A stretch of DNA of 64,000 nt, taken from contig JAPDIZ010000003.1 in the NCBI GenBank assembly GCA_029259355.1, forward strand, positions 69,181-133,180. Reading direction: 5' to 3'. Below are positions 6,256 through 59,136 of the stretch, one piece after another. This DNA comes from Candidatus Bathyarchaeota archaeon. Its GTDB lineage: Archaea > Thermoproteota > Bathyarchaeia > JAPDIZ01. Positions within the stretch are counted from its first letter, which is position 1, and each line of letters starts with the position of its first letter. Under the pieces are notes generated by a model. It was not told the origin of the DNA. It did no database searches and worked only from the letters and a program-made list of their open reading frames with translations. Both the position numbers and the translations under genes were made by a program.

Positions 6256-6987
6256 TTGAGGAATGGTCGGCTGAACATCGAGTTATCCGAAGAATCCATC
6301 CTCGCAAGGAGCTCGTCGCAGCAGGTTGTGTTGCTGATGCGTTGGGGGCTTGGATGGCTTAGGCGACGAAAATCCTCGACTCAGACGGCAGAGGTTTTGG
6401 AAGCTATAGACACTTTAGAGCGGGGAGGAGGATCGCCTAGCGTAAAAGCCATAAGCGCAGCAACCGGGTTGGGAAGCGACGAGGTTAGGAGAGTTCTAAG
6501 CGAAGCTGCTGACAAGGGGTTGGTATCGGTTGAGAGGGGAAGGCTTAGGCTCACGGACAAGGGAAGAGCTAGCGTGCTTGAGCACCGAACGAGGTATGTC
6601 CACGACCTCGTTTTAAGACCTCCCCCACCCCTCGCTACGCTCTCACGAGTTTGGGAGCGTGAGGTAAGCAGCTGGGGAGATCATTTGGTGAGAAACCACG
6701 GGATAGACCAGCAAGTAGTCCAGAGGCTTATGGAGTACAGAGGTAGAATAGAGCAGGTGGTTCCACTTACTTCGCTGGCGGAGGGGGAGAGGGGGGAAGT
6801 CGTCTTCGTATTGGGTGGGAGAGGAGCTGTTAGAAGGCTCTGGGATATGGGGCTCACCCCGGGAACCGAAGTCATCTTAGCTAGAAGAGCTCCCTTTATG
6901 GGGCCTGTCGAGGTTTTGGTTAGAGGAACGAGCTTAGCTCTTGGTAGAGGAATAGCTTCTCGAGTTTTTGTTAGAGTCAAGAGGTGA
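6256..6987 (+). CDS. winged-helix (DtxR-like) regulator with C-terminal FeoA (SH3-like) domain
   Basis: C-terminal LAEGERGEVVFVLGGRGAVRRLWDMGLTPGTEVILARRAPFMGPVEVLVRGTSLALGRGIASRVFV is FeoA-like; N-terminal HTH-like region; immediately upstream of feoB; true start uncertain. Confidence 0.65.
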   Translation: MRNGRLNIELSEESILARSSSQQVVLLMRWGLGWLRRRKSSTQTAEVLEAIDTLERGGGSPSVKAISAATGLGSDEVRRVLSEAADKGLVSVERGRLRLTDKGRASVLEHRTRYVHDLVLRPPPPLATLSRVWEREVSSWGDHLVRNHGIDQQVVQRLMEYRGRIEQVVPLTSLAEGERGEVVFVLGGRGAVRRLWDMGLTPGTEVILARRAPFMGPVEVLVRGTSLALGRGIASRVFVRVKR

Positions 6988-7107
6988 GCTCAAACGGGTA
7001 AGAGAATTAGCGTAGCGCTAGCTGGAAATGCTAATGTTGGGAAGAGCAGCCTCTTCAACCAGCTTACGGGGTCGAGCCAGCACATAGGTAACTGGCCGGG
7101 TAAGACT

Positions 7108-8958
7108 GTGGAAAAAGCTGAAGGCAAGCTGTACTACTCGGGATACGAGATATACGTGGTGGACCTGCCCGGTATCTACTCGCTGTCAGCTCTGTCGATT
7201 GAAGAGCTCATCGCTCGAGACTACATAGCCTCTGAAAAGCCCGACATAGTGATCGATGTCGTAGATGCCTCTGCTCTGGAGAGAAACCTGTACCTCACAG
7301 TGCAGCTGCTCGAACTCGAAGCCCCTCTACTGATAGCCCTCAACCAAGTAGACTTCGCCGCGAAGAGGGGGATTAGGATAGATGTCGAGGCTTTGGAAAG
7401 GGAGTTGGGGGTTAAGGTGGTTCCAACGATCGCAACCACTGGCTACGGGGTAGATGAACTCGTAAAAGCTGTAGTATCGTTCTACGAGGAGGGTAAGCCT
7501 AGCGGGAGAGCTCCAAGGTATGGGAGGGAAGTTGAGGAAGCGATAGAGGCTATCGAGAAGGAACTCTCCAACGTAACCCTTGGGGAGCTGGAGCGCTTTC
7601 CCAAAAGGTGGATTGCGATAAAGCTTCTCGAGAGAGATTCTGAGGTCTGGGAGCTGCTCTCCAAGCAGCCCAGCTGCGACGCTGTGTTTGAGGCTGTTGC
7701 GAAGTGGAGTCAAAAGATCGAGAGCATGCACGGCGAACGCGCTCCCGCCATAATCGCAGCCGAAAGATATGGGTTTATAACGCGAGTGGTTGAGCGCGTG
7801 CAGACGATAACCACACCCGCGAAGCCCTCGCTGAGCGAAGCCGTAGACGAGCTAACCACTCACCCAGTAGCGGGTTACCTGATCCTAGCTTGCGTAGTAG
7901 CTGGGATATTCGCTGCAGTCTTTGAAGGCGGATCAGCGCTCAGCGCTTTTCTTGAAAGCGTTCTATCTGGTTGGCTGCTTGCAGCGAGGCAGTGGCTCTT
8001 GAGCATCCTCCCAGCATGGGCTGTTGACGTCTTGATCGATGGGGTTCTGACGGGGTTTGTAGCGGGGCTTGTGCTCGTCATCCCATACGTCCTCCCCTTC
8101 TACGTCATACTCGCGCTGTTAGAGGACTCTGGGTACTTGCCTAGAGCCGCATTTCTCGTAGATAACCTCATGCACAAGATGGGGTTGCACGGAAAGGCCT
8201 TCATACCTCTCATGCTGGGCTTCGGCTGCAACGTCCCAGCTGTCATGGGCTGTCGAATAATGGAGACGGAGAGGGAGAGGTTCATCGCTGGCCTACTCGC
8301 TACTTTTGTGCCCTGCGCAGCTCGCACAGTCGTCATTCTCGGCGTTGTGGGAAGGTTTTTGGGCCTAGGGTGGGCGCTAGCCCTATACCTCATCGACATC
8401 TTGGTAGTGATCGCTGTGGGTAGGCTAGCTCACAGAGTTGCTCCAGGAGAGCCCATGGGCCTGATCATGGAGATGCCGCCTTACAGAAAGCCAAGCCCTT
8501 CGGTGGTGCTTAGACAGTCTTGGCTTAGGACAAAGGACTTTCTCTACATAGCTCTACCGATAATCGTGTTAGGGAGCAGCTTTTTGGAAGTGCTAAAGGT
8601 CGCGGGCGTCATCGACCAAGCCTCGCAAGCCTTTGCCCCAGCTATGAGCGCGATCCTCGGGCTACCCGGGTTTGCGGTGGTACCGCTGGTCTTTGGAGTG
8701 CTTAGGAAGGAGCTAGCTCTCGTAATGCTCGTTGAGGTAGCGGGCACGACCAACCTAAGCCTAGTGTTCACGCCTTCTCAGATGGTGGTTTTCTCACTTG
8801 TCACCATGCTCTACGTTCCCTGCATAGCTACGGTGGCAGCTCTGTTCAAGGAGTTTGGAGTTGGAAAAGCTGCGCTAATCACCGCAACAAACTTGCTGGT
8901 TGCAACCGCTTTGGGAGCGTCGTCTTTCAGGCTTATGGAGCTACTAGGCTTTTCCTAG
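7108..8958 (+). CDS. feoB: ferrous iron transport protein B (FeoB); real N-terminus lies upstream of the ORF-track start
   Basis: G3 (VVDLPG) and G4 (NQVD) GTPase motifs plus a polytopic membrane domain lie within the ORF; the G1 P-loop ALAGNANVGKSSLFNQ is encoded in the same frame at about 7015-7062, upstream of the first GTG (7108). Confidence 0.85.
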   Translation: MEKAEGKLYYSGYEIYVVDLPGIYSLSALSIEELIARDYIASEKPDIVIDVVDASALERNLYLTVQLLELEAPLLIALNQVDFAAKRGIRIDVEALERELGVKVVPTIATTGYGVDELVKAVVSFYEEGKPSGRAPRYGREVEEAIEAIEKELSNVTLGELERFPKRWIAIKLLERDSEVWELLSKQPSCDAVFEAVAKWSQKIESMHGERAPAIIAAERYGFITRVVERVQTITTPAKPSLSEAVDELTTHPVAGYLILACVVAGIFAAVFEGGSALSAFLESVLSGWLLAARQWLLSILPAWAVDVLIDGVLTGFVAGLVLVIPYVLPFYVILALLEDSGYLPRAAFLVDNLMHKMGLHGKAFIPLMLGFGCNVPAVMGCRIMETERERFIAGLLATFVPCAARTVVILGVVGRFLGLGWALALYLIDILVVIAVGRLAHRVAPGEPMGLIMEMPPYRKPSPSVVLRQSWLRTKDFLYIALPIIVLGSSFLEVLKVAGVIDQASQAFAPAMSAILGLPGFAVVPLVFGVLRKELALVMLVEVAGTTNLSLVFTPSQMVVFSLVTMLYVPCIATVAALFKEFGVGKAALITATNLLVATALGASSFRLMELLGFS

Positions 8959-8960
8959 GT

Positions 8961-9129
8961 TGGTGGGGCCGGAGGGATTTGAACCCCCGACATGCGGGTT
9001 GCTCTAGCTCCAGAAGTCAGTCATCCCCACAGGGTCTTCTTACCCGCATTCACGAGCCTCTGGAGCCCTTAACGAGGCTTCGCGCATTTCGCGAAGCCCT
9101 GCCGTCATACCTGGCTAGACCACGGCCCC
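8961..9129 (-). tRNA. tRNA gene, about 169 nt, with large intron(s); isotype not assigned
   Basis: Minus-strand RNA begins GGGGCCG-UG-GUCUAGCCAGGUAUGAC (acceptor, U8, D-arm with AGCCAGG loop) and ends GGGGG-UUCAAAU-CCCUC-CGGCCCC-A-CCA; about 115 nt lie between D-arm and T-arm, including a strong 8-bp hairpin GGCUUCGC/GCGAAGCC. Confidence 0.6.
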
Positions 9130-9154: not shown

Positions 9155-9163
9155 TGATATAAG
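9155..9163 (-). promoter_or_regulatory. candidate archaeal TATA box for the tRNA at 8961-9129
   Basis: CTTATATCA (minus strand) about 26-34 nt upstream of the tRNA 5' end. Confidence 0.3.
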
Positions 9164-9165
9164 CT

Positions 9166-9750
9166 TTAGCCAAGAGGCTTCAGCAACGTGTACAGCCCAA
9201 GCCCGATGAAGAGCGCTGCTGCAGCAAGCCTCAACCACTTAGACGGGAGCACTCTCCCGGCTTTGGCTCCGATAGCTACTGCAGCTGCCATCAAAACCAC
9301 AGCAGCTGCTACAATCCCACAGAGCACTTCAGCGGTTGCTTGGAAAGACGTAGCTAGCGAGATTACTGCTACGTTTGTCTTGTCTGCGAACTCCATGGTA
9401 GCGATGACCACTACCGAAGTAAAGAAAGTAGCTTCTCCCCTTTCCAGCACAACCTCAGCAGCTTCTGCTTGAGGAAGTGCGCACAAGATTCCCACCAAAA
9501 CCAGCATAAGCCCGGAAGCGAGCTTGAGCTGGCTTAGAGAGAGTAGGGATGAGAGACACACTCCCAAGAGTACGCAGGGAGCGTTGATCAGCAAGAAGCC
9601 GACCACGCTGCCTATGAAAACTGGTAGCGGTTTTCCTCTAGAAGCTAAAGCCACAGCCGCAAGCTGCGTCTTGTCACCCAATTCGGCTATCGACACAAGT
9701 ACGAATGCGGTAACTGCGGGGTTGGCAAGCGTCACTAGCTGCGCTTGCAT
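9166..9750 (-). CDS. UPF0016 / GDT1 (TMEM165) family membrane cation transporter
   Basis: Two internal repeats each carrying E-x-G-D-K-T (ELGDKTQ and EFADKTN) in a 6-TM 194-aa protein. Confidence 0.75.
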   Translation of the reverse strand: MQAQLVTLANPAVTAFVLVSIAELGDKTQLAAVALASRGKPLPVFIGSVVGFLLINAPCVLLGVCLSSLLSLSQLKLASGLMLVLVGILCALPQAEAAEVVLERGEATFFTSVVVIATMEFADKTNVAVISLATSFQATAEVLCGIVAAAVVLMAAAVAIGAKAGRVLPSKWLRLAAAALFIGLGLYTLLKPLG

Positions 9751-22612: not shown

Positions 22613-23755
22613 CGCTTCTCGGTAAACCTCGGATATAGCTGCGGAAACCGACTCCCAGCTGAACAGCTCCTCCACAACTTTCCTCGCCCTTCGCCCCATC
22701 GACTCCCTCAGCTCTTGATCCTCCAACAGCTTCAACACCGCTTCGGCAAGCTCTCTAGAATCTCCTCGCTTCACAACCATTCCCACGCCAGCGTTCTTGA
22801 TGTACGGCGACACACCCGCGATCTCCGAAACAACCACAGGCTTTCCACAAGCCATCGCCTCTAAAACCACTGTTCCAAAACCCTCTAAGCGCGTGGTGGA
22901 GGGCAAGACAAGCAGGTCACAACTCGCATACTGCTCTATCAGCACTTCCTCCTCCAAATAGCCAGTGAAGGTTACGTATTTTCCGATACCAAGCGACGAA
23001 GCCAGCTTCAAGTAGTGCGGCATCATGTCACCAGCTCCCACGAGCTTGAAGCGCACTGAGGGATTGCTCCGCACCACCTCCTTCACTGCCTCTAACAACA
23101 CTGGAATGCCCTTGTAGGTGAAGGATCTTCCCATAGAGCCTACGAAAAGCACCTCAGCAACCTGCTTCTCCACGAGCTTCTTGAGTGGGGAGAACTTGTG
23201 AGTATCAACTCCAACGGGTATTACGTACACCCTATCCCCAAACCCCATAGACTTTAGCTCCAACCTCAGCAGGGGTGATGTAGCTATCACGGCAGAGGAT
23301 TCTTCGAGGACGCGGGGGGTGAGCAGGCTATGGTATGGATAGGCTAAAACCCTCCTTGCGAAGCTATCGGCGAAGACCTCTGGAGACTCGAGGTTGTGTA
23401 TGGTGATGACTAAGGGAACCCCCAGCCGTCTGCTCATCCTCGAAGCTTGCCAGCAGATCGATAGGTGTGGGATGTGCGCGTGGATTAGGGAGGGATCGAA
23501 GTGAGCTATTTCGTCTACGTCGAACCGCGCTAGTGGAGCTGTAAAGAGCCTAAACACACGCTTTGACCTAATCACTCTGTAGCCGTAGGCTAATGAGCTG
23601 GAGAAAAAGCCGCTGCACGTCGTTGCTACTCCAGGTTCAAACCCATGAGGTGGAAGGTGTTTAACCAGAGATGCGACGTAGTTCTCAACACCTCCATAGT
23701 GAGGTAGGTAGTAGGAGGTAATGTGCAGAACTCTTTGGGAAGACTTGCTCGGCAT
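22601..23755 (-). CDS. GT4 glycosyltransferase (GT-B, group 1)
   Basis: LVLPSTTRLEGFGTVVLEAMACGKPVVVSE. Confidence 0.8.
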   Translation of the reverse strand: MPSKSSQRVLHITSYYLPHYGGVENYVASLVKHLPPHGFEPGVATTCSGFFSSSLAYGYRVIRSKRVFRLFTAPLARFDVDEIAHFDPSLIHAHIPHLSICWQASRMSRRLGVPLVITIHNLESPEVFADSFARRVLAYPYHSLLTPRVLEESSAVIATSPLLRLELKSMGFGDRVYVIPVGVDTHKFSPLKKLVEKQVAEVLFVGSMGRSFTYKGIPVLLEAVKEVVRSNPSVRFKLVGAGDMMPHYLKLASSLGIGKYVTFTGYLEEEVLIEQYASCDLLVLPSTTRLEGFGTVVLEAMACGKPVVVSEIAGVSPYIKNAGVGMVVKRGDSRELAEAVLKLLEDQELRESMGRRARKVVEELFSWESVSAAISEVYREALSR

Positions 23756-42743: not shown

Positions 42744-43414
42744 AGCAGGTGTCTCTTGACGAAGTCAACGAATATCTTAACCCCATCGAACACCCCAGTT
42801 CCCTTCTTCATCGAATACTCGCTGTATATGGGCGTAACCGGCACCTCAGCTACCCTACATCCAAGCCTAATAGCTTGGGCGATCATGTCAGAAGCCCAAG
42901 CAAATCCCGTTGGAAACTCCTCTAGTGCATGGAGGAGGCGTCGAGACAAGGCTCTGAAACCAGACTGGGAGTCGGAGAGGGAGTATCTACAAACCGCTGA
43001 AGTTATCGATGTGAGGAGCTTGTTGCCCAATCGCTTTACAAAGGGTATTGAAGAAGTGTCACCAGCGAACCTAGACCCAATCACCAAGTCAGCCTCCCCC
43101 CTCTTCACGGGCTCAGCCACAGCTGGTATCTCGTCGGGGTTGTGCTGTCCATCAGCGTCTATCATAACAACTACCTCGGGGTCGAACCTCTTCGCAGCCT
43201 CAAGCCCAGTGTATATGGCAGCGCCTACGCCCAAGTTGAAGGGATGAGAGAGCACTAGCGCACCAGCGTCTGCAGCTTTTTCAGCTGTTCTATCCACGCT
43301 CCCATCGTCAATAACCAAGACGATAGGGCAGTGCTTTAGAGCTCCAGCTACAACATCGCCGACTGTCGCCTCCTCGTTGTACGCAGGTATTACGCAGACC
43401 ATCGATGTCCTCAA
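42740..43414 (-). CDS. GT2 glycosyltransferase, polyprenyl-phosphate hexose synthase-like
   Basis: VCVIPAYNEEATV, VLVIDDGSVDRT, MIDADGQHNPDE. Confidence 0.8.
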   Translation of the reverse strand: MRTSMVCVIPAYNEEATVGDVVAGALKHCPIVLVIDDGSVDRTAEKAADAGALVLSHPFNLGVGAAIYTGLEAAKRFDPEVVVMIDADGQHNPDEIPAVAEPVKRGEADLVIGSRFAGDTSSIPFVKRLGNKLLTSITSAVCRYSLSDSQSGFRALSRRLLHALEEFPTGFAWASDMIAQAIRLGCRVAEVPVTPIYSEYSMKKGTGVFDGVKIFVDFVKRHLL

Positions 43415-58080: not shown

Positions 58081-59136
58081 AAAGTAGTCATAACTGGAGG
58101 ATTAGGCTTCATAGGCTTCAACTTCGCTACGCACTTCCTCAGAAGCTATCGAGAAGACGGTGTAGAGGTCGTGTTAGTCGACAACTTATCGGATCCGAGC
58201 GGGGGAGCTTACAAAAACATGGTAACGCTTCTCAGACACCATGGAGAGGATGTTGAGAAGGGTTTGCTGAGGATCGTTCCAACAGATGTGAGAGATTTTG
58301 AAGCTCTTCGCCAGACGTTGAGAGATGCAGACACCGTCCTACACTTCGCTGCTCAAGTAGCTATGAAGCCCTCGCTCGAAGACCCCATAACCGATTTTGA
58401 GATAAACGCGCGCGGAACGCTAAACGTCTTAGAAGCTGCGAGGAGATCGGAATCGAACCCCGTGATGCTCTACACCTCAACTAACAAGGTGTATGGACGG
58501 CTCGATAGAGTACCACTAGTGGAGAAGGAGCTTCGCTGGGACTACTCAGAGGATTCGCCATACTATGAGGGAATTACCGAGGATTACCCGCTCGACATAG
58601 GAGGGCCTTACGGCATAAGCAAGTGCGCAGGCGACATGTACTTTCGAGAATACGCCAAAACCTACGGCATGAAGACCATAGTCTTCCGTATGTCAGCCGT
58701 ATATGGTGAGAACCAGTACACAACCGAAGTACACGGCTGGGTTGGGTGGGTTATCTCGCGAGCGCTTTTGAAAAAGCCCCTAACCATATTCGGCGATGGA
58801 AAACAGGTTCGTGGAGTGTTGCACGTGCAAGACCTAATCGAAGCGTTTGAGCTTGCGCAAAAAAACATCAACCGAGTTAGGGGTGAGGCATTCAACATAG
58901 GGGGAAACCGCCGAAACTCTCTCTCCATCCTCGAGCTGCTCAAGCTGCTCAAGGAGAGATACGGCGTCGCTCCCTCTGAGGTTAGGTATGCGAATTGGAG
59001 AAAAGTGGATCAGAAGTGCTTCATAGCTAACTGCCGAAAAGCTTTGGAGTACTTTGGGTGGAGGCAGAAGATAAGTAAGGAAGAAGGCATCGACCGGATG
59101 ATCGCTTGGGTTCGGCAAAACATCGCCGATAGCTAG
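58081..59136 (+). CDS. NAD-dependent nucleotide-sugar epimerase/dehydratase (paralog of 30705-31847), no canonical start codon for the Rossmann motif
   Basis: Frame-1 translation from 58081 gives KVVITGGLGFIGFNFATHFL...; Y-x3-K (YGISKCAGD); first in-frame ATG/GTG/TTG is GTG at 58171, after the Rossmann motif. Confidence 0.7.
   Translation, partial: KVVITGGLGFIGFNFATHFLRSYREDGVEVVLVDNLSDPSGGAYKNMVTLLRHHGEDVEKGLLRIVPTDVRDFEALRQTLRDADTVLHFAAQVAMKPSLEDPITDFEINARGTLNVLEAARRSESNPVMLYTSTNKVYGRLDRVPLVEKELRWDYSEDSPYYEGITEDYPLDIGGPYGISKCAGDMYFREYAKTYGMKTIVFRMSAVYGENQYTTEVHGWVGWVISRALLKKPLTIFGDGKQVRGVLHVQDLIEAFELAQKNINRVRGEAFNIGGNRRNSLSILELLKLLKERYGVAPSEVRYANWRKVDQKCFIANCRKALEYFGWRQKISKEEGIDRMIAWVRQNIADS

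Follow-up and report, generated by a model that had tools for sequence, protein, structure and literature searches.

A probable tRNA-Trp(CCA) gene with two bulge-helix-bulge introns, one of them guide-like, in a Bathyarchaeia genome

The locus

A tRNA-like locus of 169 nt is the subject of this article. It lies in a 64,000-nt stretch of DNA from a Candidatus Bathyarchaeota archaeon (assembly GCA_029259355.1, contig JAPDIZ010000003.1, positions 69,181 to 133,180 of the forward strand), referred to below as the window, where it occupies positions 8961-9129 on the minus strand. With high confidence the locus is the gene of a Bathyarchaeia tRNA-Trp(CCA) precursor carrying two bulge-helix-bulge (BHB) introns, of which the second resembles a guide RNA for 2'-O-methylation. 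RNA position p corresponds to window position 9130-p, and the gene is composed as follows.

9101-9129, minus strand: exon 1 (RNA 1-29), 29 nt, with the acceptor strand GGGGCCG, U8 and G9, the D-arm GUCU-AGCCAGGUA-UGAC, G26, and G27 and C28
9069-9100, minus strand: intron 1 (RNA 30-61), 32 nt, with four of four central pairs and an inner helix of 10 bp in the BHB scan
9060-9068, minus strand: exon 2, the 9-nt micro-exon GGGCUCCAG, with G29-G31, C32, U33, the anticodon C34 C35 A36, and G37
9000-9059, minus strand: intron 2 (RNA 71-130), 60 nt, with three of four central pairs, five inner and three outer pairs in the BHB scan
8961-8999, minus strand: exon 3 (RNA 131-169), 39 nt, with A38, CCCGC, the variable loop AUGUC, the T-arm, CGGCCCC, A73 and CCA

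The 5' end reads GGGGCCG-UG-GUCU-AGCCAGGUA-UGAC and the 3' end AUGUC-GGGGG-UUCAAAU-CCCUC-CGGCCCC-A-CCA. An earlier note on this DNA, made by eye and silent on the strand, had recognised an acceptor stem GGGGCCG/CGGCCCC, U8, a D-arm, a T-arm and CCA; all of them are present and its coordinates are exact, with the gene on the minus strand. It had also placed about 115 nt between the D-arm and the T-arm, a distance that by count is exactly 115 nt (RNA 27-141), and had supposed a long intron or several introns, which the pair of BHB introns (28/29 and 37/38) bears out. The T-arm is GGGGG-UUCAAAU-CCCUC, and the terminal CCA is encoded in the gene (8961-8963). The locus folds with a z-score of -3.16.

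Exon-intron structure and isotype

Splice sites were sought with a BHB scan over all splice-site pairs (two 3-nt bulges 4 bp apart, each cut behind its second nucleotide), together with an enumeration of every 17-nt anticodon arm that RNA 28-136 can supply once up to two introns are taken out. Eleven of the 11034 possible assemblies have a perfect 5-bp stem, U33 and a purine at 37, and the top BHB scores among them belong to GCGGG-CUCCAGA-CCCGC, in which RNA 30-61 and RNA 71-130 are removed (28/29 and 37/38 in standard numbering). The 3' strand CCCGC (RNA 132-136) pairs here with a split 5' strand, G28 C29 and G62 G63 G64 in RNA positions, the anticodon loop is CUCCAGA and the anticodon CCA. 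The isotype, which had been left unassigned, is Trp(CCA): default ARAGORN recognises a tRNA-Trp(cca) in the 77-mer spliced in silico, whose cloverleaf has an energy of -32.8 kcal/mol and all standard tRNA features, and the pair G1-C72 and A73 are read directly from the sequence. The spliced exons are identical at 64 of 74 positions to the exons of Archaeoglobi tRNA-Trp, which score 56.1 bits against the Rfam tRNA model. The nine bases GGGCUCCAG also occur in the Archaeoglobi, Desulfurococcales and L080 tRNA-Trp genes described below, an identity that is no independent evidence since these bases belonged to the search pattern used on the metagenomes.

Two candidate anticodon stems proposed from the unspliced sequence, CAGGG...CCCUG and GCGGG...CCCGC, do exist in it, and invite a different arrangement of exons and introns: three introns, an Arg(UCG) isotype built on CAGGG/CCCUG, or the intronic GCGGG used as stem. 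The first pair is not conserved, since CCCUG reads CCCGA in the closest ortholog (locus L001). From the second pair CCCGC stands as the 3' strand, but the GCGGG meant is intronic (RNA 83-87) and is followed by UAAGAAG, which provides no U33. The exhaustive search with at most two introns leaves the Trp assembly as the only one with good BHBs, and any such rearrangement is regarded as extremely improbable.

A further assignment comes from ARAGORN itself, which in intron mode calls exactly c[8961,9129] as a tRNA-Gln(UUG) whose variable arm is long and whose only intron has 74 nt. This program places introns in the anticodon loop only, so that the Gln call looks like a forced fit. The anticodon stem of such a tRNA would hold two G·U pairs beside the long extra arm, and tRNA-Gln is not known to be among the tRNAs with long variable arms. 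No BHB is listed by the scan at 36|37 and 110|111, and many arbitrary deletions of the locus are likewise accepted as Gln, whereas the two-intron structure yields a perfect cloverleaf close to a real tRNA-Trp. There is hardly any probability left for a tRNA-Gln. Single arbitrary deletions followed by ARAGORN were also tried as a means of locating the introns and rejected for want of discrimination: 356 of 1725 products were accepted, the first 60 listed all being Gln(ctg).

The top score of the raw BHB scan falls at RNA 113|114...150|151. This candidate was discarded, as it would delete the T-loop and is a by-product of the complementarity GGGAU/AUCCC.

The motif is formed by RNA 102-113, GGGGAUGACUGA (window 9017-9028, minus strand), which can pair with RNA 147-157 of the T-loop and T-stem, GGUUCAAAUCCCU (8973-8983, minus strand). 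This pairing between the kink-turn (K-turn)-like region of intron 2 and the T-arm is treated as a chance match or a competing structure, and cutting there would destroy the T-arm.

Related genes

The product of the neighbouring feoB has its best named matches in Bathyarchaeia (51-55% identity), and a single relative, represented by loci L001 and L002, is 96% identical. Comparison with orthologous loci had been proposed as a check on the tRNA gene, and in L001/L002 the gene is conserved in the same place, with exons identical to those of the window. The differences are confined to the hairpin loops of the introns or the bases adjoining them: in L001, intron 1 is changed only in its hairpin loop, and intron 2 has two substitutions and a 1-nt insertion within or beside its internal hairpin loop.

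A more distant gene, L080 (metagenome contig Ga0180302_10008898, 3820-4028, plus strand), is a 209-nt tRNA-Trp gene with three BHB introns, of 33 nt at 17/17a, 41 nt at 28/29 and 61 nt at 37/38, the last with the same splice geometry as in the window. It is not recognised as a tRNA by Rfam. Its host is an unclassified archaeon whose best non-self protein hits reach at most 50% identity for an epimerase-family protein and at most 70% for GAPDH, spread over several archaeal classes; following synteny from L080 through GAPDH homologs led to no tRNA-Trp nearby.

Five further loci, L093 (10409-10540, minus strand), L094, L112, L116 and L118, have only the canonical tRNA-Trp intron, of 56-58 nt. An exact protein look-up for the L116 contig names metagenome-assembled genomes (MAGs) of Desulfurococcales, and the tRNA genes and flanks of the other four are near-identical to those of L116. 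L093 obtains 54.6 bits with the Rfam tRNA model and no match to a box C/D family. Scans of viral contigs returned chance matches only.

A curious case is L017 (JALVYB010000056.1), a contig assigned by binning to a candidate division WOR-3 bacterium. Two 3' halves of Archaeoglobi-type tRNA-Trp lie on it, one adjoining a stretch of N, and the contig has the look of an archaeal fragment that was misbinned or mis-scaffolded into a bacterial MAG.

The splice motifs and the standing of the gene

Intron 1 sits between positions 28 and 29 and interrupts the anticodon stem in its 5' strand. The central helix of its BHB is GACG (RNA 24-27)/CGUU (RNA 56-59), with one side supplied by G26 and the 3' strand of the D-stem; the bulges GC|A and AA|G flank it. 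Inside lies a hairpin of 10 bp (RNA 31-40/46-55), evidently the stable hairpin that had been noticed by eye, although its size had been put at 8 bp.

The same intron is present in L080. Its ends read AGAGCUUC...GGGGCUCCAUUAA there and AGGGCUUC...GAAGCCUCGUUAA in the window, with identical bulges, and the central helix is AAUG/CAUU in L080 against GACG/CGUU in the window. The intron strand of L080 has thus changed in step with its own D-stem, including a double change from C-G to U-A, which argues that the intron 1 BHB is under selection and that the intron was inherited. This comparison of sequences suggests that the 28/29 intron, common to at least two divergent lineages, is not a recent transposition; no further copy of intron 1 or intron 2 was found in the window or in any fetched locus.

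Intron 2 has as its central helix CUCC (positions 32-35 in tRNA numbering)/AGAG (RNA 125-128), with three of four pairs and a C·A mismatch, the bulges AG|A and CA|A, and the inner helix GGCUC (RNA 72-76)/GAGCU (RNA 120-124). Its outer helix is the anticodon stem, of which only 3 bp are available while intron 1 is still present.

Several results speak against a two-intron gene of this kind. With its default settings ARAGORN reports no tRNA at any place in the window, and the unspliced locus has no Rfam match above the gathering thresholds, to the tRNA model or to any other; at E<=10 the best match on the region is tmRNA, with 25 bits (one lower-scoring overlapping match of the same clan was hidden by the tool). 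The outer helix of intron 1 amounts to 1 bp, a relaxed motif that falls short of the strict hBHBh' form, and the central helix of intron 2 has the C·A mismatch. Taken together, the two irregular motifs mean that a broad-specificity endonuclease would be needed.

The absence of a tRNA call had been named in the earlier note as grounds for giving up the tRNA, and default ARAGORN and Rfam indeed give none, while ARAGORN in intron mode finds the exact span. The missed Rfam call is attributable to the non-canonical intron, as the single-intron relatives score 54.6-56.1 bits. The tmRNA and mascRNA matches of the permissive Rfam search were set aside as look-alikes of the T-arm and acceptor.

The failure of standard detectors and the relaxed BHBs would also suit a disrupted, non-functional pseudogene in which the insertions stay in the RNA. 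Against this, the exons are intact and identical in the relative while introns and flanks vary, the BHB helices show compensatory changes with respect to the distant homolog, the CCA is encoded, a TATA-like element is present upstream, and L080 keeps the same architecture with more introns. A pseudogene is accordingly held to be very improbable, and the gene is real and probably functional. The upstream element is the following.

9157-9167, minus strand: putative archaeal promoter, AAAGC followed by TTATAT, read from sequence

The putative TATA element lies at -33 to -28 relative to G1, directly after the stop codon of the upstream gene of the GDT1 family. Archaeoglobi tRNA-Trp genes have A/T-rich elements of the TTATAT type at similar upstream distances.

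The 37/38 intron as a guide-like RNA

Within intron 2, two segments complementary to the tRNA precursor flank a structured module.

9042-9049, minus strand: guide-like segment AUGCGGGU (RNA 81-88), complementary to tRNA positions 38-45
9018-9038, minus strand: internal K-turn-like module, with a D'-like AAGA (RNA 92-95), the hairpin CCC-UGU-GGG (RNA 96-104), G105 and a C'-like AUGACUG (RNA 106-112)
9006-9017, minus strand: guide-like segment ACUUCUGGAGCU, 12 nt (RNA 113-124), pairing with tRNA positions 30-37 and intron nucleotides i1-i3

The segment AUGCGGGU forms an 8-bp duplex in which G87, the fifth nucleotide upstream of the AAGA box, pairs with C39. The same register, from the fifth nucleotide upstream of a D'-type box to C39, is found in the window, L080, L093 and the Archaeoglobi. 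Positions 44/45 of the variable loop co-vary with this guide (AU/AU in the window, UG/CA in L080). The segment ACUUCUGGAGCU forms an 11-bp duplex in which G120 pairs with C34; the distance from the C'-like box to the D position is exactly 12 nt, and it is again the fifth nucleotide upstream of the D position that meets the target. This C34 register is kept in the window, L001, L080, L093, L094 and the Archaeoglobi, and the intron nucleotides i1-i3 co-vary with the 5' portion of this guide (AGG/CUU, AGC/GUU and UCC/GGA, with CGG/CCG in the Archaeoglobi).

The module between the two segments is conserved in a similar manner. AGACC and GGGAUGA are invariant across three lineages, and the hairpin that they flank co-varies (CCC/GGG in the window, CCUCC/GGAGG in L080, CCCC/GGGG in Desulfurococcales), with one C-G versus U-A pair. 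The C'-type box is AUGACUG in the window, a perfect AUGAUGA in L080 and AUGAUAG in Desulfurococcales; the D'-type box is AAGA in the window and L080 and UAGA in Desulfurococcales; and the D position reads AGAG, GAGA and GGAG, respectively, the AGAG of the window being at the same time the 3' strand of the BHB central helix. From its sequence, the AAGA/hairpin/C' element is predicted to form a K-turn and may bind L7Ae. Terminal boxes are also missing from the Desulfurococcales introns, in which UAGA is followed by a hairpin and GAUGAUAG and the fifth nucleotides again meet C39 and C34. In the Archaeoglobi the order is a C box, a 12-nt guide for position 39, CUGA, a short loop, UGAUGA, a 12-nt guide for position 34, CUGA and the BHB strand.

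None of 20000 shuffles of the window intron reaches both complementarities, and in a MAFFT alignment 95% of the cells are paired, against at most 52% when the partners are slid, with three pairs changing on both sides.

A guide function has several points to answer. The consensus terminal C box (RUGAUGA) and D box (CUGA) were not found in intron 2, and the C-box position, the seven nt just upstream of the 12-nt guide, reads GCUCGUG. No C/D family of Rfam matches the window (at E<=10) or L093, and L080 matches only sR5, with 14.9 bits and an E-value of 0.38, while the Archaeoglobi intron, taken as control, matches sR3 with 61.9 bits. The co-variation comes from only three independent non-euryarchaeal lineages, so that its statistics are thin, and the complementarity to positions 31-37 could serve the shape of the precursor only. 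Other boxes were tried and rejected: GUGA (RNA 77-80) and CUGA (RNA 110-113), taken as the terminal C and D boxes, are wrongly spaced and do not occur in L080 or L093, and UAGA (RNA 124-127) as D box gives fifth-nucleotide targets that disagree (position 35 in the window, 36 in L080).

These points lend some weight to the alternative that intron 2 is a splicing substrate and nothing more, whose complementarities give the precursor its shape or stability, or are what is left of an ancestral C/D guide in decay, and which directs no methylation. Besides the missing boxes and Rfam match, it is favoured by the coincidence of the D position with the BHB central strand, which splicing alone could constrain, and by the intron of Sulfolobus solfataricus, also described as lacking consensus boxes in the main text of Danan et al. 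(PMC3326292). Against it stand the C39 register, the 12-nt spacing and the C34 register, all kept in three divergent lineages; the co-variation of the guides with i1-i3, which are not exon nucleotides, and with positions 44/45; the invariant AGACC and GGGAUGA on either side of a co-varying hairpin; and the guide-34 duplex, which competes with the BHB instead of aiding it. The substrate-only alternative is possible, if rather unlikely. By analogy with known introns, guidance of methylation by intron 2 is mildly favoured, and the intron looks like a recognisable but unusual, pared-down version of the tRNA-Trp intron guide RNA.

Folding and a proposed maturation pathway

The minimum-energy fold of the precursor, at -78.5 kcal/mol, keeps the guide-34 duplex, and the conformer with both BHBs, at -66.8 kcal/mol, lies about 12 kcal/mol higher. 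With the duplex in the minimum-energy fold and the BHBs costlier, these energies fit a refolding step before splicing. When intron 2 is removed in silico, the intron 1 BHB appears in the minimum-energy fold. The order of splicing is probably fixed, because the 9-nt exon is held by only 3 bp as long as intron 1 is present.

A pathway can be proposed from established archaeal tRNA splicing and the Haloferax volcanii system (PMC4090602), and it is by this analogy that we infer cleavage, ligation and methylation at the present locus. The antisense segments of intron 2 would first base-pair with the precursor's anticodon arm. On the internal K-turn-like module a particle of L7Ae, Nop5 and fibrillarin would assemble and 2'-O-methylate C34 and C39. 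The RNA would then refold into the BHB form, in which a broad-specificity tRNA splicing endonuclease (EndA) would cut the four 3-nt bulges. An RtcB-type ligase would join the three exons into a standard 77-nt tRNA-Trp and would probably circularise the introns as well. Gene structure, splicing and guide role taken together, this explanation is judged quite probable as a whole.

A more specific and speculative proposal, doubtful as it is at present, is that the tRNA-Trp intron of Thermoproteota (Bathyarchaeia, Desulfurococcales and probably Sulfolobales) is a methylation guide with a single K-turn, in which the BHB has replaced the terminal C/D K-turn. If true, the BHB would keep the 12-nt ruler distance that the lost K-turn had to the target, and one element would serve as the end of the guide ribonucleoprotein (RNP) and later as the endonuclease substrate, coupling Cm34 and Cm39 to splicing. 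The 28/29 intron would keep the anticodon stem open, so that the guide reaches position 39.

Neighbouring features

The tRNA gene converges with feoB, and its 3' end and the feoB stop codon are 2 nt apart. The 64-kb window yielded no other tRNA gene. The T-loop consensus GGTTCRANYCC has three more matches in it (0.49 expected by chance), at 23634-23644 (plus strand), 43178-43188 (minus strand) and 58449-58459 (minus strand); they were rejected as tRNA candidates, as each falls within a coding sequence and lacks both a T-stem and an acceptor context.

The feoB frame (6985-7110, plus strand) is open from the feoA stop codon (6985-6987), and its first ATG, GTG or TTG does not come before 7108. 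The open reading frame caller therefore cuts FeoB short, after the G1 motif (GNANVGKS). In the 96%-identical feoB ortholog, GTG serves as the start at the corresponding codon; the lack of a usual start in the window may be due to a sequencing error, to a mutation of the start codon or to the use of a non-standard one.

Significance

Since the gene escapes the tRNA finders in common use, annotation by tools that take no account of introns would leave the impression of a genome with no tRNA-Trp. With this locus the Bathyarchaeia join the archaea with multi-intron tRNA genes, of which the Thermoproteales are the best known. Intron 2 provides comparative evidence that the guide intron of tRNA-Trp predates the split between Euryarchaeota and Thermoproteota, and that of Thermoproteota seems to be pared down to one K-turn-like module and two guides. 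This raises the question of whether one K-turn is enough for a working guide RNP when a BHB stands in for the other.

Comparison with known systems

The closest known counterpart is the box C/D pre-tRNA-Trp intron of Euryarchaeota, found in H. volcanii, in Pyrococcus (sR50) and in the Archaeoglobi (sR3). The H. volcanii intron guides Cm34 and Um39, and tRNA-Trp introns are long (median 65 nt) since they nest a C/D guide (PMC4090602). The window intron shares with them the tRNA-Trp host, the 37/38 site, a comparable length (60 nt versus 61-66 nt in the Archaeoglobi), the order guide-39, D', C', guide-34, the fifth-nucleotide targets C39 and C34, the 12-nt spacing from C' to D, and a guide for position 34 that spans the exon-intron junction (PMC4090602). 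It differs from them in having no terminal C (RUGAUGA) and D (CUGA) boxes, in a D' of AAGA and a C' of AUGACUG joined by a 3-bp hairpin rather than a short loop, and in the BHB strands that occupy the place of the terminal K-turn. Where the Archaeoglobi intron scores 61.9 bits, it matches neither sR3 nor any other C/D family.

The 65-nt intron in S. solfataricus tRNA-Trp is described in the main text of Danan et al. (2012, PMC3326292) as a stable circle that has no consensus boxes and shows complementarity to positions 34 and 39, over 7 bp in each case. By that description it resembles the introns of the window, L080 and the Desulfurococcales, all boxless, of the Thermoproteota type and with short complementarities to 34 and 39. 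The stability of the circle is experimental, whereas a circular form of the window intron is a prediction, and the passages of PMC3326292 consulted mention no K-turn-like D'/hairpin/C' module or 12-nt register. The tRNA-Trp of Sulfolobus acidocaldarius carries Cm34 (PMC7668247).

Genes with several introns, up to three per gene and including non-canonical BHB introns, are well known from Crenarchaeota and Thaumarchaeota (PMC4090602, PMC4033280, PMC8450103), and tRNAscan-SE 2.0 was designed to find tRNA genes with non-canonical introns. An example is the tRNA-Pro(UGG) of Pyrobaculum islandicum, with introns at 25/26, 37/38 and 56/57 (PMC4090602, PMC8450103). The window gene resembles those of Thermoproteales and other Crenarchaeota in combining a canonical and a non-canonical BHB intron, in its relaxed HBh'-type motifs and short exons, and in being missed by ordinary tRNA finders (PMC4090602, PMC8450103); unlike the Thermoproteales genes, it belongs to a Bathyarchaeia host. 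A published review names the sites 29/30 and 30/31 and not 28/29, in a list that ends with "etc.", so that the novelty of the site is not established by it. Taken together, the Bathyarchaeia host, the 28/29 site and the boxless intron with its conserved D'/hairpin/C' module, its exact 12-nt registers and a BHB where the terminal K-turn would stand appear to go beyond the published accounts surveyed.

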